Shown: positions 5,212-54,680 of the stretch, one piece after another
How the letters are laid out: every line of letters starts with the position of its first letter
Position numbering within the stretch: the first letter of the stretch is position 1
Assembly (NCBI GenBank): GCA_964394405.1
Contig: CAYMVY010000002.1
Coordinates: 64,092-128,091, forward strand
Reading direction: 5' to 3'
Source: an uncultured Gammaproteobacteria bacterium
Lineage (GTDB): Bacteria; Patescibacteriota; Patescibacteriia; Magasanikbacterales; UBA922
DNA: 64,000 nucleotides
Program-made: the position numbers and the translations under genes
The notes under the pieces: model-generated
Database searches by the model: none
The model's input: the letters and a program-made list of their open reading frames with translations, nothing else
What the model was told of the DNA's origin: nothing

Positions 5212-5970
5212 ATGTCGTATACCGTTCATAGCCTCGCACAATTGGCAGGAATTAGTGTTCGCACCCTCCATTACTATGATGAAATTGGTCTCTTGAAGCC
5301 CTCGGTCATCAAAAAGAATGGATATCGTTATTACGAGGATGCCGAACTTATTCGTTTGCAACAGATACTCTTTTTCCGCGAATTAGAGTTTCCACTGGAA
5401 GACATCAAGCGCATGCTTAATCGTCCTCAGTTTAGCGTAGTCGAAGCGCTGAAAGATCAGAAAAAATTAATACGATTGAAGCAGGCAAGACTTGAAAAAT
5501 TAATTAATTCAATTAATAAAACTATTAAAACTATGAGTAATAATCAGAAAATTAAGGATGAAGAGTTGTATGATGTGTTCAAAGACACTGAGGTAAAACA
5601 GTATCAGGATGAAGTAAAGGAGCGGTGGGGGAATAGCGACGCCTATCGTCAGAGCATGGCGAAAGTGGGTAAGATGACAAAAAAAGAAATGGAAAAACTA
5701 AAAGAAGACGGAAAAAAACATACGCAGGCAATTGCTGATGCAATGGATAAGGGAATTGGTCACCCTGATGTACAGAAGCTTATTAAGCAAAGTCATGAAG
5801 GGGTGAATTTCTTTTATGACTGCAGCTATGACATGTTTCGCAATCTGGGGAAGATGTATGTGGAGGATTCGCGATTCACTGCGTACTATGAAAAGTTCCG
5901 TCCGGGTCTTGCAGTATTCATGCGCGACGCTATTGCGTATTATTGCGACCAGCATGAGAATAAATCATAA
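5212..5970 (+). CDS. MerR-family transcriptional regulator with TipAS-like C-terminal domain (TipAL/Mta-like)
   Basis: N-terminal MerR HTH (LAGISVRTLHYYDEIGLL) plus about 140-aa TipAS-like effector domain. Confidence 0.8.
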   Translation: MSYTVHSLAQLAGISVRTLHYYDEIGLLKPSVIKKNGYRYYEDAELIRLQQILFFRELEFPLEDIKRMLNRPQFSVVEALKDQKKLIRLKQARLEKLINSINKTIKTMSNNQKIKDEELYDVFKDTEVKQYQDEVKERWGNSDAYRQSMAKVGKMTKKEMEKLKEDGKKHTQAIADAMDKGIGHPDVQKLIKQSHEGVNFFYDCSYDMFRNLGKMYVEDSRFTAYYEKFRPGLAVFMRDAIAYYCDQHENKS

Positions 5971-8484: not shown

Positions 8485-8528
8485 ATATCAATTCACCCAG
8501 AGGTGAATTTATTGTATAAGATAATCTT

Positions 8529-8556
8529 GACTTTTACTATATTTTTGATACAATTT
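8529..8556 (+). promoter_or_regulatory. sigma70-like promoter for tRNA-Gln (TTGACT-N16/17-TACAAT)
   Basis: Read directly about 30 nt upstream of tRNA. Confidence 0.45.
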
Positions 8557-10544: not shown

Positions 10545-10808
10545 ATGCCACGCAAAGCAAATCCAGCGCTCATGAGACCATATAAGGTTTCAGCTGAGCT
10601 CGCAGCAGTAGTAGGAGCAGGTCCTATGCCTCGCTCACAGGTAGTAAAGAAAATGTGGGAATATATCAAGAAGAATGATCTTCAGAATCCAAAGAACAAA
10701 CGAAACATTCTCGCAGATGACAAACTCAAAGCAATTTTTGGTGGCAAGAGTGAAGTGACCATGTTTGAAATGGCTAAACTCGTAAACAATCATTTAACTG
10801 CTGCCTAA
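10545..10808 (+). CDS. SWIB/MDM2-domain protein
   Basis: 87-aa protein with characteristic SWIB motif (...QVVKKMWEYIKKNDLQNPKNKRNI...). Confidence 0.8.
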   Translation: MPRKANPALMRPYKVSAELAAVVGAGPMPRSQVVKKMWEYIKKNDLQNPKNKRNILADDKLKAIFGGKSEVTMFEMAKLVNNHLTAA

Positions 10809-10833
10809 GGCTCGATTCAATTCAAGTATTTTA

Positions 10834-10867
10834 CCCTGCACCAGAACGGTGCAGGGTTTGTTTTTGT
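10834..10867. terminator. terminator hairpin ccctgcacc-agaac-ggtgcaggg + T-run (identical hairpin recurs at 27926)
   Basis: Seen directly; exact 23-nt repeat at 27926-27948. Confidence 0.65.
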
Positions 10868-10942
10868 CCTTTGATTGACAATGTATAATAGAAGTGTTTA
10901 ACTTTTTCAAGTGTCTTTCCTCTTTTTGGTCGGAGTAAGCCA

Positions 10943-11167
10943 ATGACTAGTAGAAATTACGGTGCACGTCCGCCCCAGGGGGCTGAGTGGCAGATCGGGA
11001 AGACTGCTGCCTCAATCAAGTTCGTCAACGATGCTGTCCGGTACATCGAGACGTGTCAGAACGAGCAGGATCGAGGGAAGCTTCTCGGTGCGGTCGAGAA
11101 GCTCAAGCGTGGAGAAATGGTGCTCGAGGCCTCGCTCGACCCCGAAGACTTTCTCTCCCAAGAGTGA
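10943..11167 (+). CDS. hypothetical 74-aa protein in GC-rich island (extended -10 TGTATAAT at 10883-10890, GGAG Shine-Dalgarno)
   Basis: Promoter, Shine-Dalgarno, ORF and terminator arranged as a compact cassette; no homology recognised. Confidence 0.4.
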   Translation: MTSRNYGARPPQGAEWQIGKTAASIKFVNDAVRYIETCQNEQDRGKLLGAVEKLKRGEMVLEASLDPEDFLSQE

Positions 11168-11241
11168 CAACAGCACACTCCAGTCCTGTCCGAAGAAGTT
11201 CTACCCTGAACCATTCGGGGCAGGACTTCTTCATAAAATTA

Positions 11242-11269
11242 AACCCCGGCTAGTGCCGGGGTTTTGTTT
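11242..11269 (+). terminator. terminator hairpin aaccccggc-tagt-gccggggtt + T-run
   Basis: Seen directly. Confidence 0.55.
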
Positions 11270-11356
11270 GATTCTTAAAATATATAATACATTTGCCACC
11301 CCCGTACCCCTTGAGTTTGGCTTAACCTAAGTTTGAAGAACAATAAGAATTAGTAT

Positions 11357-18175: not shown

Positions 18176-18397
18176 GTAGATACACACGAATTACGCATTG
18201 CTGGTTAATGTTTTGAGTTTATTGGTGATTCGTATGTAATCGGTTTATACAAAAAGACCAGTTGTAGATTCTCCTTTTGCCACATCCGATATGTATCGGG
18301 TACAGCAATGGGGGTGCAACTGGTCTTGTTGTTCCCCCCGACTCGCGTGAGCGAGCTATTTCGGCAGTGATGCCGCTACGGTATCAGGGGCGGAGGC

Positions 18398-18628
18398 TTA
18401 GAAGCCTCCGATGTCGAGATCGCTCAGGGTTCGTGCGGGAACTTTCTGACTCTTGTTCTCCATGGTTGTGTTGGGCGGGGGAACGTGGCCACTGACCATC
18501 GTCGAGGGAGGGGGCACCTCCGTAGTCATCTCCTGCTCGGGCGGGTTCCAGGATGATTCCTGGGACATCACCACGATCAGGATGAGGACGATAATCAGTA
18601 CGATTACACCAATAATCGTGCCAATCAT
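18398..18628 (-). CDS. hypothetical small membrane protein (76 aa; N-terminal TM, Pro-rich tail) in GC-rich island
   Basis: Own promoter TTGACA-N16-TATACT (plus coords 18681-18708), GGAGA Shine-Dalgarno; alternative plus-strand ORFs are Arg-rich GC artefacts. Confidence 0.4.
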   Translation of the reverse strand: MIGTIIGVIVLIIVLILIVVMSQESSWNPPEQEMTTEVPPPSTMVSGHVPPPNTTMENKSQKVPARTLSDLDIGGF

Positions 18629-24569: not shown

Positions 24570-25142
24570 ATGCTCAACACTAGCTTACTTTCAAAAATTA
24601 GAAAAGATTTACTCTCATACGCCGAAGTACGTCAAAAGGTTATCAAAGATTCTAATGATGCACTATTTCAGGCAAAGCGAGTTATTTTTTCATTGCATCG
24701 TGACCAGGTGAAGGAGGCAAAGGAAAAACTCGAAGCGTCGAAATCGTTGTTGGTCAAAATTTCAAAAGAATATGGTCGAGACGAACGCGTGCTTGAGGAA
24801 GGCGCATATAAAGCAGCGCTTGAGGAATTTGTGGAAGCAGAATTATTTTATCAATTTGTTACTACGCATAAAATCGGGGATATCAAGGGAATCAAGGTGT
24901 CTCCTGAATCATATGTCGCAGGACTCACTGATGTGCCAGGAGAGCTCTATCGATATGCCATCAAAGCTGCTACAGCAAGAGATGAAAATACCGTAAAGAC
25001 GTGTGCGGAAATGGCTGAAGAAATTATTGGTGAACTGATCGAGTGCAATCTCACGAGCTATCTTCGCAATAAATTTGACCAGGCAAAAACCGCGGTGCAT
25101 AAAATAGAGCATGTAGTATATGAACTCTCTTTGAGAGATTAG
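24570..25142 (+). CDS. translin/TRAX-family protein (all-alpha nucleic-acid-binding/RNase family)
   Basis: C-terminal block SYVAGLTDVPGELYRYAI...LRNKFDQAKTAVHKIEHVVYELSLRD closely resembles the TRAX/translin signature (DYLLGvADLTGELMR...VYDLSIRG). Confidence 0.55.
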   Translation: MLNTSLLSKIRKDLLSYAEVRQKVIKDSNDALFQAKRVIFSLHRDQVKEAKEKLEASKSLLVKISKEYGRDERVLEEGAYKAALEEFVEAELFYQFVTTHKIGDIKGIKVSPESYVAGLTDVPGELYRYAIKAATARDENTVKTCAEMAEEIIGELIECNLTSYLRNKFDQAKTAVHKIEHVVYELSLRD

Positions 25143-25160: not shown

Positions 25161-26576
25161 ATGCTTCAAAAAGTGAAACAATTGATCAAAAAATATATTC
25201 CGAAACATATTCTGAATCTCAGACATTTGGTGTATGCATGGTATGGTGCGACACGATATCATCATCCCTCAAATGAGCTTCTAGTGATCGGTGTTACGGG
25301 AACGAGTGGAAAATCGACTACTGTTTTTTTGCTTCGCAATATGCTGGAGAGTCTAGGATATCGTGTGGGTTCTCTTTCTACAATTGATTTTCATATTGCG
25401 GGAGAAAACAAACTCAATAATCAGAAGATGACCATGCTTGGGAAAATGCAGATACAAAAATATTTGCGCGAGATGGTTGATAAGGGTTGTGAGATTGTAA
25501 TTGTGGAAACGACTTCTGAGGGAGCACTGCAATATCGGCATCGGTTCATCAATTATGATTTGATGATTTTGACTAATCTGTATCCTGAACATATCGAATC
25601 CCATGGAAGCTTTGAAAATTACAAGGAAGCAAAATTATCATTGTTTCGCCACACTGCGAGATATGGGAGAAACAAAAAACGGTCAGATGATCTAGGTTTC
25701 CCTCTGCTTACGAGACCTAATAGTGAATATATATCAAAAATAGCTCTGGTGAATGGTGACTCGGTTCATGCTCCAGAGTTTTTGTCGCAAGGCCCGTTTG
25801 ATTCTACTTATGCATTTGGAACAGGGGAGCGGATAATTGATACAGTCGATCATTATTTTCGCTTGTCTGATGTTCATAGTGAAGAAAAAGGTATTGCATT
25901 TTTGCTTGACAATCACGAAATACACGCACCTTTGTATGGGGAATATAATGCAAAAAATTGCTCGATTGCATTTGGAGTGCTTGCAATTCTCGGGGTGAGT
26001 TGGGATCGTATACGTGTTGCTGCTCGAGTGTGTACCAATGCGCCTGGTCGTGTAGAATTTATCAACCAGGCTGAAAAATATAATTTTAAAGTTATTGTGG
26101 ATTACGCATTTGAACCAAAAGCTGTTGAAGCGCTCTATTCGATTGTAAGTACTTTGTCTCCACAGCGAATTATACATGTGTTTGGTTCTACGGGTGGTGG
26201 ACGAGACAAGTCGCGTAGATTTACGGTCGGAGAATACGTGGGGAGACATGCGGATATTTGTATCGTGACCGACGAAGATCCTTATGATGATGATCCTCTT
26301 GAAATTATGAGAGATGTGGCGAGCGCGGCGGAAAAAAAAGGTAAAATTCCAGGGAAGGATTTGTTTTTGATTGAAGATAGGAGAGAAGCTATTGAGCGGG
26401 CGATTATGATGGCTGATCCGGGTGACGTTGTTTTGGTAACAGGGAAAGGAAGCGAACAGGCGATATGCGTAGCTGGGGGAAAGATGATTCCGTGGGATGA
26501 TCGAAAGGTTGTTCGAGAAGCACTGACACTCCGTGGTGGAGAGAAGAAAGAAATAAAATCATTATGGAGTATATAA
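25161..26576 (+). CDS. Mur ligase family protein (MurE-like; short N-terminal domain)
   Basis: GVTGTSGKST P-loop near residue 45, central Mur ligase domain, C-terminal GKGSEQ block. Confidence 0.65.
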   Translation: MLQKVKQLIKKYIPKHILNLRHLVYAWYGATRYHHPSNELLVIGVTGTSGKSTTVFLLRNMLESLGYRVGSLSTIDFHIAGENKLNNQKMTMLGKMQIQKYLREMVDKGCEIVIVETTSEGALQYRHRFINYDLMILTNLYPEHIESHGSFENYKEAKLSLFRHTARYGRNKKRSDDLGFPLLTRPNSEYISKIALVNGDSVHAPEFLSQGPFDSTYAFGTGERIIDTVDHYFRLSDVHSEEKGIAFLLDNHEIHAPLYGEYNAKNCSIAFGVLAILGVSWDRIRVAARVCTNAPGRVEFINQAEKYNFKVIVDYAFEPKAVEALYSIVSTLSPQRIIHVFGSTGGGRDKSRRFTVGEYVGRHADICIVTDEDPYDDDPLEIMRDVASAAEKKGKIPGKDLFLIEDRREAIERAIMMADPGDVVLVTGKGSEQAICVAGGKMIPWDDRKVVREALTLRGGEKKEIKSLWSI

Positions 26577-27295
26577 GTGTAGTTGTTCCGGTATATAATC
26601 GAGCACAGGTTTTTTTTCGGGCATTGGAGTCGATTGCAAAGCAGACATATCGACCACTTCAGATTATTGTGGTTGATGATGGAAGCACCGAAGACATAGA
26701 GACAGTTTTTGGAATCATTTCAAAGAGACATTCATCCAATGAATGTTCTTTTGCATATATCAGACAGGAAAATAGAGGTGCTCCTGCAGCGCGGAATAGG
26801 GGATTTACTGAAGTCAAAGGAGAATATGTGATTTTTTGGGATGCAGACATTATTGGTAAAGCGAATATGCTCGAAGTAATGCATGATATATTAGTCAAAA
26901 ATTCTGATGCATCGTTTGCATATTCCAATTTTTTATTAGGACGAAAATTATTTCGAGGAATACCTTTTTCACATGACGCACTTAAGAAAAATAATTATAT
27001 TACTTCTACATCACTTATTCGCACTGCGGATGCAGTGAAATGGGATGAGTCTTTGAAACGCTTTCAGGATTGGGATTTGTGGCTTACTATGGCGGGTCAG
27101 GGGAAGAAGGGTGTGTGGATTGATGAAATATTGTTTCAGGTGGAAGGTGGTGGAACCATCAGCTCATGGCTTCCATCATTTGCGTACAGAGTGCCATTTC
27201 GTTGGTTGCCGAGTATATACACGAAGGTCAAAAATTATGAAGCTGCTCGAGAGGTGTTGTGGTACAAGCATTCTATTTCTTCTAAGCACACTTGA
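26564..27295 (+). CDS. family 2 glycosyltransferase
   Basis: VVVPVYN...VVDDGS DxD-type GT2 N-terminus. Confidence 0.8.
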   Translation: MEYISVVVPVYNRAQVFFRALESIAKQTYRPLQIIVVDDGSTEDIETVFGIISKRHSSNECSFAYIRQENRGAPAARNRGFTEVKGEYVIFWDADIIGKANMLEVMHDILVKNSDASFAYSNFLLGRKLFRGIPFSHDALKKNNYITSTSLIRTADAVKWDESLKRFQDWDLWLTMAGQGKKGVWIDEILFQVEGGGTISSWLPSFAYRVPFRWLPSIYTKVKNYEAAREVLWYKHSISSKHT

Positions 27296-27332
27296 AATTT
27301 TTTTGATTGTATGATATAACCTGGGTGAATTT

Positions 27333-27545
27333 GTTGCACTCCTTGATTCCACGGTTGGATAGCGTGTCCGTTGCTCCGCCTGTCACTCTACCGGTAGAGT
27401 ACAGCGTGTGGGATTATCCTGGAATATCGGTATGCGGTAGGACGGTATCCGCTTTGTCTGATTTGTGCACTCACTGAGAAAAGACGAATTCACTCGGGAA
27501 CGCGAGAGATCACTCTCTCCCGCGTTCCCTTGTCCATAATATATT
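27333..27545 (+). ncRNA. candidate structured RNA (unit 1) with closing helix GGGUGAAUU/AAUUCACUC, bounded by terminator
   Basis: GC-rich, extended -10 TGaTATAAC at about 27316-27325, 5'/3' complementary ends, terminator at 27546-27576. Confidence 0.3.
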
Positions 27546-27576
27546 AAAAAAACCGACATACCGTCGGTTTTTTTAT
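27546..27576. terminator. bidirectional terminator aaaaaaaccgac-atac-cgtcggttttttt
   Basis: Seen directly. Confidence 0.6.
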
Positions 27577-27652
27577 TTTAATTTAGCAAAATTTATTAGT
27601 TATCCACCGTATTTCTTGTGGTCTGATTCGGCACATGGTATAAAGAGTATAA

Positions 27653-27925
27653 GGTTGAGGTAAGTAGGGGAGATCGGAAGTTGAGGATCATATCCTCGTT
27701 TCACGCAGGTTACCTGCAAACTGACTGGCACGCCTCGCGCGCCACAAAGTTCGCAACTCTTGCGAGAAACTGCTTCTTCGGAAGCGCCCTTTTTCCCCAT
27801 GGAACTCTCGGGTTCCACTACTTGCCTTCACTCAGGAGGCGGACTACTGGTGTTCTCGAACACCGTGTCCGCCTCCGCAACCTACACTCTTATCTTCTCC
27901 TCATGAGGAAATAAGAGCAATAAAA
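27653..27925 (+). ncRNA. candidate structured RNA (unit 2), GC-rich, nested hairpins (ggaggcggac...gtccgcctcc), promoter TTGTGG-N17-TATAAA at 27620-27646
   Basis: No convincing ORF; bounded by promoter and the ccctgcacc/ggtgcaggg terminator. Confidence 0.3.
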
Positions 27926-27955
27926 CCCTGCACCAGAACGGTGCAGGGTTTTATT
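27922..27955. terminator. bidirectional terminator ccctgcaccagaacggtgcaggg + T-run (second copy of this hairpin)
   Basis: Seen directly; identical to 10834-10856. Confidence 0.65.
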
Positions 27956-28875
27956 TATAGAAATTTTTGTTTATCAAGTGTGATCCAATATCCTGCAAGA
28001 CAAGCGTTTACATCGAGCGATTGCTTTCCTTCAAATTGAATTTTTTCAATTTTGATTGAACCATCTCTCGTTCCTACGAGTATCGTATTTTCTTCACATC
28101 GTATATATCCTGGGTCTAATTTTTCGTGTGCAGGTTTAATTTCAAGCAGCTTTACTCGTTCTCCGTTAAGAGTTGTCCAGATTCCTGGCCAGGGTGTGGT
28201 ACCGCGATACAGATTATATATTTCTTCAGTAGTTTTATTCCAATCAATTTTTCCGTCATCACGTGAAAGTTTTTTGCACAGTGTTACTTTTGATTCATCT
28301 TGTTTTTGTGGAATAATTTTTCCTTCAATATATTCGAGTACGGTTTTCAACAGAAGCGTTGATCCTATTTTCGCAAGTCGTGTATCAAGCTCGGGGTATG
28401 TTTCATCTGAGCTGATTGTAATTTTTTCTTGTGACAAAATATCTCCAGTATCCATTCCAGCGTCCATGATCATAATTGTAACGCCAGTTTCTGTTTCACC
28501 ATTAATAAGAGCTGTTTGAATGGGTGATGCACCACGATACTTTGGCAGGAGCGAGGTATGTACATTTATAAATCCATGCTTTGTTTCAGTAAACAAATGA
28601 GATGGAATAAGTAGACCATATTGCGCGGTGACTGCAACGTCAAACGTATCCTTTTCAAGATGAAAGTCTTTGAGTGTTTCTGGCTGTTCTATTTTTATAC
28701 CCAATTTTTCAGCTGCGAGTTTTACTGGAGAGGAGGTAAGGATTTGTTTTCTTCCCACTGGTTTATCAGGCTGGGTTATGACTAGATCAACTGAAAAACG
28801 ATCATCTGTAGTAAGTGATTCGAGGATGGTCACTCCAAATTCATGAGTTCCGAAGAATGCAATTTTGATTTTCAT
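27955..28875 (-). CDS. fmt: methionyl-tRNA formyltransferase
   Basis: N-terminal formyltransferase domain with HTSLLPKYRGASP, C-terminal Fmt domain. Confidence 0.9.
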   Translation of the reverse strand: MKIKIAFFGTHEFGVTILESLTTDDRFSVDLVITQPDKPVGRKQILTSSPVKLAAEKLGIKIEQPETLKDFHLEKDTFDVAVTAQYGLLIPSHLFTETKHGFINVHTSLLPKYRGASPIQTALINGETETGVTIMIMDAGMDTGDILSQEKITISSDETYPELDTRLAKIGSTLLLKTVLEYIEGKIIPQKQDESKVTLCKKLSRDDGKIDWNKTTEEIYNLYRGTTPWPGIWTTLNGERVKLLEIKPAHEKLDPGYIRCEENTILVGTRDGSIKIEKIQFEGKQSLDVNACLAGYWITLDKQKFL

Positions 28876-49712: not shown

Positions 49713-50494
49713 TCTTGCTTCACAAACCTGCAGAAAAAGTTGATACTCTATACCTCTAGTTTTTGAACGCCAATTCTGTGGTGTCGCACAATGTAGGGGA
49801 TAGCATAGTCGAAAGTCTATAAAGTCATAAAGTCGAAAGTAAGAAATACAATACGCGTGTTAGTTGAACTGGTGCTAGGGGAGGGAAGGAAAAATTATAT
49901 GTGTAAAATGTTGACTCAAATACAGGAATCAAAGTTAGTTGGATTCAAAAGAACCTTTTTGTTCTATAGTATATAGTGTCGTATAAGATATATTGTGCGA
50001 CACGTAGTACTAAAGCGCGACACCTCACTTTCTGCTCTACCCTGCCTAGAAATGAGCTAAAAATAATTGTCTACGCATCTAATGTCGCAGGACGATTTCA
50101 CTACCTGACCTCAAACATTCTTTTACGAGTAAAAAACTAGGCATTTAAAAACCGATCAATTCAATGGTCGGCTTTTTTAATGTTTGGTTTATGGTTGGGA
50201 GGTTTTTTGACTGAATTTGGGGTGTTATCTACTCCCCGACCCTTAAGCCTGTAAAAGGTCAGGAGAGGTCAAGAAGTTATGAGAGTGTTCCCTACTACTT
50301 TTGCGGTCAGGTAGTTTGCGGTATAATTGTACTTAAATATATTCCCTTTCAACGGGGAGCATGAGCAAAATTGTCCCCTGAAGATTGAGTTTAATTATTG
50401 ACTACTGGATAGTCGCCCCCACAGTTAATCAACTTGGTTAGCTGTTGTGGGCGTTACTATCAGTGACGTTCAATTTTATTCTTAATCTCCTTCT

Positions 50495-50605
50495 ATGGCC
50501 AAGACCAAGAAAGGCAAGAAGATCGTGGAGGTTCGCCGCCACTATCGTCATGTCGGAGACAAGCGAATTCTCGTGAGAGAATATCGCAAGTCTACACCTA
50601 ATTAA
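50495..50605 (+). CDS. possible 36-aa highly basic peptide (MAKTKKGKKIVEVRRHYRHVGDKRILVREYRKSTPN)
   Basis: Small ORF followed by terminator 50645-50675, flanked by about 25-bp inverted repeats; no Shine-Dalgarno; could be noncoding. Confidence 0.25.
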   Translation: MAKTKKGKKIVEVRRHYRHVGDKRILVREYRKSTPN

Positions 50606-50644
50606 TTTTAGGTGAGGGGCTCCATGCTCCCCTTTCAAGGGGAA

Positions 50645-50675
50645 TAAAAAACGAGTCTTAGGTGACTCGTTTTGG
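50645..50675. terminator. terminator aacgagtc-ttaggt-gactcgtt + T-run
   Basis: Seen directly. Confidence 0.55.
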
Positions 50676-50690
50676 TTATTATATAAATTT

Positions 50691-54149: not shown

Positions 54150-54176
54150 TAACAAAACCGCCCTTATCGGGCGGTA
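54150..54176 (-). terminator. terminator accgccc-ttatc-gggcggt with T-run on minus strand
   Basis: Seen directly. Confidence 0.5.
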
Positions 54177-54316
54177 GTCTATTCTATCATTCACTATACA
54201 CGAATTTCATGCGCAGTGAATGGTTCGCGATCGAGTGTGTTTTGCCTTACACAGTCGATCGCGAGTGGTGATTCCTCCTCAAAGAGGGTGAATCACTTTC
54301 CCGAAGAGGGGTGGGG

Positions 54317-54519
54317 TCAGATGTTCTCGTGATCCTCGGGCGGCGCGTCGGTCACGACGTTCTCCGGATCGTGAGGCGGAGACTTGGGCTGCGGCACTGG
54401 CTGCCAGAAGGCCTCCGGCTCCAGATCGTCCGGTCCGCAGGCCTTCTGCATCGGCGGCTTGTACTTGCCACCGGTGGGGTCGTAGCCACGCACCGTAGTG
54501 CTATCTTTCGAATTCGACA
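54317..54519 (-). CDS. hypothetical 67-aa Pro/Asp-rich protein in GC-rich island (GGAGAAG Shine-Dalgarno)
   Basis: ATG (minus) at 54517-54519; 15-bp inverted repeat hairpin at 54225-54264 and terminator at 54150-54176 downstream. Confidence 0.35.
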
Positions 54520-54680
54520 TCTTCTCTTCTCCAGTGCCCCCTGCTTGAGGTATAACGCGTGAGCGTCGAGTGTGAGGGCGAATCATATTCCAATTATTAC
54601 TTAGAATATTATTTACCCGCACACTCAAAAAAGAACTAGTCAACATTAGTGTATATCATGTTTTGTATGTTTTGTCAATC

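Follow-up and report, generated by a model that had tools for sequence, protein, structure and literature searches.

Two structured RNA units, probably independent accessory genes, in a fast-turnover intergenic site of a Candidatus Magasanikbacteria genome

Several described classes of bacterial RNA offer points of comparison for small, structured intergenic units. 6S RNAs are dispensable to the cell, and in some phyla covariance models are known to miss them. The DapZ-type small RNAs (sRNAs) of Enterobacteria, which derive from 3′ untranslated regions (3′-UTRs), are expressed from an internal promoter and are short, Hfq-bound and furnished with an open seed region. RNAIII and the CsrB/RsmZ-type sponges, placed here under Gram-positive bacteria, are large multi-hairpin regulatory or protein-binding RNAs. 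The hallmark of signal recognition particle (SRP) RNA is a helix 8 that bears a GNAR tetraloop and conserved loops, both symmetric and asymmetric; that of RNase P RNA is the P4 helix motifs GAGGAAAGUCC ... ACAGAAnnCGGCUUA. Here we describe a 64-kb stretch of DNA (the window) from an uncultured member of Candidatus Magasanikbacteria, in which a 659-nt spacer (27296–27954) contains two GC-rich units, units 1 and 2. The spacer lies between two convergent genes: a GT2 glycosyltransferase gene on its left (26564–27295, plus strand; Pfam PF00535, E=3.6e-24) and fmt, encoding methionyl-tRNA formyltransferase, on its right (27955–28875, minus strand; PF00551 and PF02911).

Both units are real, structured, non-coding elements of the plus strand, bounded by conserved promoters and terminators and novel to Rfam. 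We consider it likely that they are independent accessory genes for structured non-coding plus-strand RNAs, representing new clade-restricted families within a GT2–fmt hotspot of fast turnover. In kind they are bacterial sRNA genes; the families are new, and the rapidly exchanging RNA-cassette locus that holds them is unusual. The original prediction, drawn from the letters of the window, had placed two adjacent GC-rich structured units here, each with its own promoter and terminator, and had read them as small non-coding RNAs. This outline is borne out: the units have ~52% GC against 41% for the window (RNA bodies 0.527 for unit 1 and 0.528 for unit 2; flanking genes 0.395/0.375; window 0.414), and both fold better than their dinucleotide-shuffled versions, with z = −5.67 for unit 1 and z = −12.80 for unit 2 (dG −149 kcal/mol) and no shuffle as good in either case. 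Conserved promoter motifs and intrinsic terminators were found, and compensatory changes, strand asymmetry and the lack of a coding signal all point to RNA.

Unit 1 (type A, ~205–250 nt) is preceded by a plus-strand promoter (27292–27320) consisting of a −35 element TTGAAA (27292–27297) that overlaps the GT2 stop codon, 14 nt, and an extended −10 element TGATATAAC (27312–27320); it is invariant or near-invariant in five homologues, in which the spacer varies. The rod domain (27323–27495, plus strand) is a ~173-nt imperfect long hairpin closed by pairing of its 5′ and 3′ ends, GGGTGAATT (27323–27331) with AATTCACTC (27487–27495), and carries a conserved unpaired CUGUCACUCU in its 5′ arm. It is followed by a 3′ GC hairpin (27496–27529, plus strand; GGGAACGCGAGAGA / TCTCTCCCGCGTTCCC, RNA 3′ arm UCUCUCCCGCGUUCCC) and by an intrinsic terminator (27546–27576, plus strand, bidirectional) with a 13–14 bp stem and T7. 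The elements first described for this unit are thus present, but its start lies near 27323, not 27333. Reading of the sequence revealed no terminator between GT2 and unit 1, which is therefore readable by read-through from GT2 and so resembles a 3′-UTR-type sRNA with an internal promoter. As in the DapZ type, the end of the preceding coding sequence doubles as part of the promoter and unit 1 shares the sole terminator downstream of GT2, but at ~250 nt and almost fully paired it departs from that type. With 6S RNA (RF00013 and relatives; Ms1), unit 1 has in common a ~170-nt largely double-stranded rod, paired ends, a strong promoter and dispensability; it differs in lacking a model match and a two-sided bubble, in possessing an extra 3′ hairpin, and in its narrow distribution, being found in a few species while sister genomes have unrelated RNAs in its place.

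Unit 2 (type B, ~270–300 nt) has a plus-strand promoter (27616–27644) comprising TTGTGG (27616–27621), 14 nt and TGGTATAAA (27636–27644); equivalently, TTGTGG and TATAAA (27639–27644) are separated by 17 nt, with TG directly before TATAAA, and CTTG and TGnTAnAAA are conserved in four homologues. The core (27650–27884, plus strand) is closed by helix P1 (AGGUUG/CAACCU, 27652–27657 / 27878–27883), which encloses a long P2 with a four-hairpin multiloop, as well as the P7 hairpin (27835–27876, plus strand; GGAGGCGGAC...GTCCGCCTCC, RNA 3′ arm GUCCGCCUCC). Hairpins within the unit include those at 27683–27697, 27772–27785 and 27800–27817, the second being GCTTC-TTCG-GAAGC with a UUCG loop. The gcttc/gaagc hairpin had been recognized at the outset, but with CGAA as its tetraloop in place of TTCG; a second slip among the hairpins described at the outset concerns the inner hairpin, which reads GGTGTTCTCGAACACC and not ...CTCGAGAACACC. 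Downstream of the core lie the P8 hairpin (27887–27917, plus strand; CUCUUAUCUUCUC / GAGGAAAUAAGAG), a conserved 3′ module, and an intrinsic terminator (27919–27955) with a 16–17 bp stem that serves unit 2 on the plus strand and fmt on the minus strand. The two terminators were correctly predicted; our correction is that both are bidirectional and that fmt, too, is terminated by the second. The hairpin of this shared terminator (27925–27951; ACCCTGCACCAGAACGGTGCAGGGTTT) recurs as an exact 27-nt copy at 10833–10859, downstream of a SWIB-domain gene (10545–10808), and this terminator module has thus been duplicated 17 kb away.

As a predicted stand-alone multi-hairpin transcript of 270–300 nt, with invariant hairpins suggestive of recognition sites, unit 2 resembles RNAIII and the CsrB/RsmZ-type sponges; the likeness is architectural only, as the unit has neither repeated GGA or UCCC loop motifs nor an encoded peptide. 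In size range, GC-richness and branched fold it also resembles the Bacillus-type large SRP RNA and bacterial RNase P RNA, from which it differs in having no model match, no domain IV, no P4, CR-I or CR-V motifs, and no conservation at the syntenic site.

Relatives were sampled as fmt-anchored loci from GTDB genomes and contigs with close fmt homologues; the clade sample consists of 17 further loci, 15 of which extend to GT2 (L151 and L183 end before it). Type A homologues were present in L001, L004, L138 and L140 (76–84% identical to the window) and type B homologues in L137, L142 and L150 (72–81%). With the window included, the families comprise five and four sequences, respectively, and the covariation is to be read as supportive, not definitive. 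For type A, RNAalifold predicted 82 pairs, 15 with changes on both sides, and 95.8% of cells were paired; for type B, it predicted 97 pairs, 13 with changes on both sides, and 95.1% of cells were paired. None of 500 column shuffles reached the observed values in either family, and slid controls gave 36–46% (A) and 43–50% (B). The folds are therefore kept across relatives through compensatory changes, a check that had been proposed together with the original prediction.

The clearest case in type A is the 3′ GC hairpin (helix 7), in which 9 of 18 pairs are changed on both sides, for example GGGAACGCG/CGCGUUCCC versus GGAGGCAUG/CAUGCCUCC in L001; the terminator stem (helix 8) also covaries in the homologues. 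In type B the covariation sits in P2–P4, and three helices are invariant: P1, P7 (GGAGGCGGAC/GUCCGCCUCC) and P8 (UUAUCUUCUC/GAGGAAAUAAG). At the base of P7 (helix 10) all 10 pairs never vary, and in P8 (helix 12) 11 of 12 pairs are invariant. The P7 base is shared with the short unit of L001, which has GGAGGCGCGAC...GUCCGCCUCC followed by ACACUCU, and the P8 module also ends the transcript predicted at L144 (nhmmer match, E=1.3e-11). The invariance of P1, P7 and P8 suggests sequence-specific recognition.

The homologues also bear on strand and coding potential. The plus strand fits the alignments better than the minus strand (96.4% versus 79.3% for type A; 95.3% versus 88.9% for type B) because there are many conserved G–U pairs, and a covariance model of the type A rod (R1) scored 168–196 bits in the plus sense (182–196 bits for the five type A sequences) and 18 bits on the reverse. 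Variable columns are spread over codon positions without 3-base periodicity (27/31/29 in A, 35/33/35 in B). That the units encode small proteins, as GC-rich foreign mini-genes like the 74-aa open reading frame (ORF) at 10943–11167, might be suggested by the ORFs of 50–77 codons with GTG or TTG starts that exist within them and by the GC-rich small ORFs found elsewhere in the window. The original prediction had seen no convincing ORF and had named a conserved one among the findings that would tell against it; none was found among the A and B homologues, in which frames and start codons differ and indels of 1–2 nt, not multiples of three, break the frames. The ORFs in the units have no Pfam match and no Shine–Dalgarno sequence at the right distance, and one such ORF in L001 runs through a terminator. 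We give the small-protein explanation next to no credence. Together, the strand fit, the lack of periodicity and the unconserved ORFs indicate that the RNAs are non-coding and read from the plus strand.

A different alternative is that the hairpins act as DNA-level or cis elements, either as palindromes resembling miniature inverted-repeat transposable elements (MITEs) or repetitive extragenic palindromes (REPs), or as 3′-UTR or terminator padding that keeps GT2 and fmt, which converge, insulated from each other. The position between convergent genes, the bidirectionality of both terminators, the good folding of the minus strand, and the missing GT2–unit 1 terminator, which places unit 1 within any GT2 read-through transcript, are all compatible with this idea. 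Against it, the pairing is strand-specific through its many G–U pairs, each unit has its own conserved promoter, and 43–69 nt between GT2 and fmt suffices in close relatives. MITE- or REP-like behavior also finds no support: each unit is single-copy in the window, with no other A or B copy elsewhere in the 64 kb or in 1.2 Mb of fetched fmt/GT2-neighbourhood loci, and comparison of filled with empty sites revealed no terminal inverted repeats or target duplications. We therefore regard a DNA-level or cis-acting role as very improbable, and return to the reading of the units as RNA genes.

Turning to known RNA families, a search of the whole 64-kb window with Rfam 15 at the gathering score returned only tRNA-Gln, and ARAGORN likewise found only tRNA-Gln in the window and no transfer-messenger RNA (tmRNA). 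At E<=10 with lax filters, an 851-nt query (27200–28050) gave no 6S, SRP, RNase P, tmRNA, riboswitch or ribozyme match; what was returned (Thr_leader, AgrB and others) consisted of weak matches owed to the two terminators. Eight loci from relatives were searched at the gathering score and six at E<=1, and their sibling units gave no 6S, SRP, RNase P or tmRNA match. These models include those (6S, SRP_bact, RNaseP, tmRNA) with which the original prediction had proposed to check its suggestion of a 6S-like or SRP-like identity, a suggestion that is not upheld. The consensus of unit 1 has no two-sided central bubble, its largest interruption being 10 nt in the 5′ arm versus 1 nt opposite, and the 4-bp helix adjoining this interruption covaries. 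Unit 2 is multi-branched, unlike the 6S rod, and has no SRP domain IV loops: the one tetraloop hairpin it has, GCUUC-UUCG-GAAGC, pairs perfectly and is free of internal loops.

A weak minus-strand resemblance of unit 2 to RNase P RNA had also been reported. RNase P models gave no match on either strand; the minus-strand GGUAAC on which the resemblance depended is specific to the window, differing in all three homologues L137, L142 and L150 (type B alignment columns 122–131), and the minus strand is disfavored. The accompanying remark that P4 motifs are not evident stands: inspection of the region showed none, and the closest string, GAGGAAAUAAGAG, lies at the 3′ end within P8. Reading of the region also showed no antisense unit or second promoter, and no search was aimed at a minus-strand antisense RNA. 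Retron, omega-RNA/TnpB and bridge-RNA assignments were dropped, there being no reverse transcriptase, TnpB/IscB or IS110 among the genes within ~10 kb. In the literature on 6S RNA and on non-coding RNAs of the candidate phyla radiation (CPR)/Patescibacteria, we found nothing relevant.

One or both units might nonetheless be housekeeping RNAs that have diverged too far in CPR bacteria for Rfam, unit 1 corresponding to 6S and unit 2 to SRP, RNase P or tmRNA. Their size, GC-richness, closing helices and strong stable-RNA-type promoters would fit, and rpoD lies 6 kb away, although this is probably irrelevant. Set against this are the failure of every such model at E<=10 and of ARAGORN, the missing bubble in unit 1 and the missing P4 and domain IV motifs, and the distribution of the units: relatives whose fmt is 80–99% identical lack them or have unrelated RNAs in their place. 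Absence of A and B from the syntenic site in several very close relatives is not the behavior of a housekeeping RNA, and we judge this explanation improbable. In the relatives compared here, both families are restricted to one small clade of Candidatus Magasanikbacteria and are dispensable. Each unit does have the general marks of a stand-alone sRNA gene, namely a conserved promoter, an intrinsic terminator, a conserved structure and no conserved ORF, with transcription predicted from these features.

The content of the GT2–fmt spacer differs among genomes with 70–99% identical fmt while synteny is kept. Spacers of 43–69 nt in L002, L003 and L006 are empty. L146 (2665–3087) and L147 (3467–3889) hold a minus-strand gene for a 140-aa HEPN-domain protein (Pfam E=1e-4), solitary and without an adjacent MNT partner, and L005 holds a minus-strand ~72-aa putative membrane ORF (~5300–5520) with its own terminator, together with RNA type C. 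The remaining spacers carry A alone (L004), A with a mini-B (L001), A with C (L138, L140), A with B (the window), B alone (L137), B with E (L142), F with B (L150), G (L145), G with C (L183), or type D with a tRNA-like element and a B-type 3′ end (L144). Replacement is rapid: fmt is 99% identical between L002, which is empty, and L147, which has the HEPN gene, and 86–89% identical among L004, L138 and L145.

Two slots can be distinguished. Slot 1, proximal to GT2 and with a promoter overlapping the GT2 stop, holds A, G, F or D; slot 2, proximal to fmt, holds B, C, E or mini-B. Across these slots there are at least seven unrelated structured RNA types with conserved promoters, sharing a common design of promoter, variable GC-rich structured body, long G-rich/C-rich hairpin, short tail and terminator. 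The types have no detectable sequence or model homology to one another. Even with filters off, model R1 gives no match to the sibling rods C, D, F and G, and these are therefore treated as separate families despite their similar architecture. An exact-complement search for a common GGGAG.GCGGG hairpin was too strict to inform, and an apparent common 3′ hairpin with a "CCACUC" tail motif is a soft observation. Type B is found in the deepest branches; it looks ancestral in the clade and vertically inherited with losses, and L002 appears to keep a remnant of a B 3′ end.

The tRNA-like element of L144 (3531–3689, minus strand) has acceptor, D and T arms and scores 43 bits against the Rfam tRNA model, but contains a 95-nt structured insertion in place of the anticodon loop and is not called by ARAGORN. 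It sits between the type D RNA and the type B-like 3′ end.

Outside the clade, a metagenome scan with the GT2 protein gave 80 loci at 45–60% identity, in which no sequence homologue of A or B was found and the GT2-downstream spacers are heterogeneous. An invariant 22-mer of B had 0 matches in viral contigs, and a distant blastn search of phages and plasmids returned no match to the units. A 16-mer of A had 31 viral matches, which were judged to be chance; the best, L153, lies in an apparent coding sequence and lacks the fold.

Such turnover invites the question of whether the units are RNA parts of a conflict system, be it toxin–antitoxin, anti-phage defence or counter-defence, or symbiont–host manipulation. 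This role would account for the exchange of unrelated cassettes at a single hotspot, and it draws on the variable-island behavior of the site (the empty L002 and HEPN-bearing L147 having 99% identical fmt), the small membrane ORF of L005, and the presence of at least seven unrelated RNA types in two slots. Several observations oppose it: no partner protein gene stands beside A or B, whose flanks are housekeeping genes; there is no conserved small hydrophobic ORF, nor, as bears on type I toxin–antitoxin systems, any conserved ORF among the homologues; no repeat structure like that of type III antitoxins is present; phage, plasmid and viral collections yielded no match; and B seems to have descended vertically in the clade, with losses. 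On balance a conflict role seems unlikely. It is equally doubtful that the interchangeable RNA-only cassettes of this hotspot, units 1 and 2 among them, are undescribed stand-alone RNA conflict elements, directed at phage, host or competitor, of an episymbiotic CPR bacterium.

The promoters of the two units are of one type. The motif TTGnnn-N14-TGnTAnAA stands ahead of both units and is kept in all homologues, with variable spacers; it also precedes 16 of 16 sibling RNA units in the relatives. Within the window it occurs four times, ahead of the two units, tRNA-Gln (8527–8553) and one protein gene. From its position ahead of the units, their siblings and tRNA-Gln, it looks like the stable-RNA promoter type of this organism. 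A DnaA-box-like element, TTATCCAC, lies on the plus strand at 27600–27607, 8 nt upstream of the unit 2 −35 element. Copies of the box precede the −35 by 8–9 nt in L137, L144 and L150 (two copies), with a degenerate form in L142, the distance being 8 nt except at the F unit of L150; in relatives it thus accompanies types B, F and D, and it may be a shared regulator site. There are six TTATCCAC sites in the window, five of them in or beside intergenic promoter regions (5147, 18734, 23254, 27600 and 53930), including sites upstream of dnaG and of a DsbA-like gene.

We infer from these features that the units are expressed as discrete sRNAs. A sigma-70-type promoter with an extended −10 would drive each unit, and its own intrinsic terminator would end it. 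In the unit 1 RNA, pairing of the 5′ and 3′ ends would close a 173-nt rod, and the covarying GC hairpin would come next; the unit 2 RNA would form a junction of P1, the large covarying multi-hairpin P2 and the invariant P7, followed by the invariant P8. Possibly, the RNAs would then act in trans as a folded scaffold or decoy that binds or sequesters a protein. Near-complete pairing, several sequence-invariant helices and the lack of a long single-stranded seed favor such a protein-binding or sequestering role over that of classical antisense sRNAs, but we advance it tentatively, at somewhat less than even chances. A base-pairing regulator is also possible given the conserved unpaired CUGUCACUCU of unit 1; the complement of this loop showed no enriched target within the window.

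Several points weigh against the overall interpretation. With four to five sequences per family, the covariation statistics are weak in absolute terms, and the shuffle control ignores phylogeny. The structures were predicted on the plus strand, which biases the strand comparison somewhat. Both promoters are deduced from conservation, and a strict sigma-70 scan listed neither, as the last base of their −10 hexamers is C or A. The copy-number statement covers the fmt/GT2 neighbourhood loci and the window, and the protein-binding mechanism is argued from analogy only.

In a very small genome, ~600 nt dedicated to RNA genes are unlikely to be idle. What is unusual is that a single intergenic site swaps at least seven unrelated structured RNAs while the flanking proteins remain 70–99% identical and two promoters and similar 3′ hairpin modules are kept. 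The locus therefore offers a testable entry to accessory RNA turnover and function in reduced, symbiotic genomes; if the RNAs are ordinary lineage-specific regulators, their interest is modest.

The surrounding genes are of housekeeping type: an amino-acid kinase, dnaG, rpoD, sodA, a DsbA-like gene, translin, a Mur ligase, GT2, fmt, an M23 peptidase and an exonuclease. In the close relatives compared, translin, the Mur ligase gene and GT2 likewise converge on fmt. The bacterial translin-family gene (24570–25142, plus strand; PF01997, E=1e-22) lies two genes upstream of the RNA hotspot and is kept in relatives whose loci extend that far, its presence being independent of RNA content. The fmt protein shares 85% identity with its MAG_812 counterpart, its 12 nearest genome matches being Magasanikbacteria or related metagenome-assembled genomes, and a protein identical to it (P0001) is encoded on an NCBI/Logan contig.

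Four further structured or GC-rich sites occur in the window. At 10866–11272, a TTGACA...TATAAT promoter precedes the GC-rich 74-aa ORF mentioned above (no Pfam match), followed by two hairpins and a terminator (11192–11272); in this AT-rich genome it has the look of a foreign mini-gene. On the minus strand, 54160–54320 contains three consecutive strong hairpins and a terminator downstream of a 109-aa gene (54317–54646), with z = −12.9 in a 150-nt scan and −7.5 for 271 nt, and is a candidate structured 3′ region or sRNA. A GC-rich folding intergenic segment on the plus strand (18226–18400; z ~ −8 in the scan, −4.85 for 211 nt) adjoins a GC-rich 76-aa minus-strand ORF (18398–18628). Finally, 49713–50690 spans 978 nt without a long ORF and includes a terminator, several moderately structured segments and a small basic ORF (~50497–50604).

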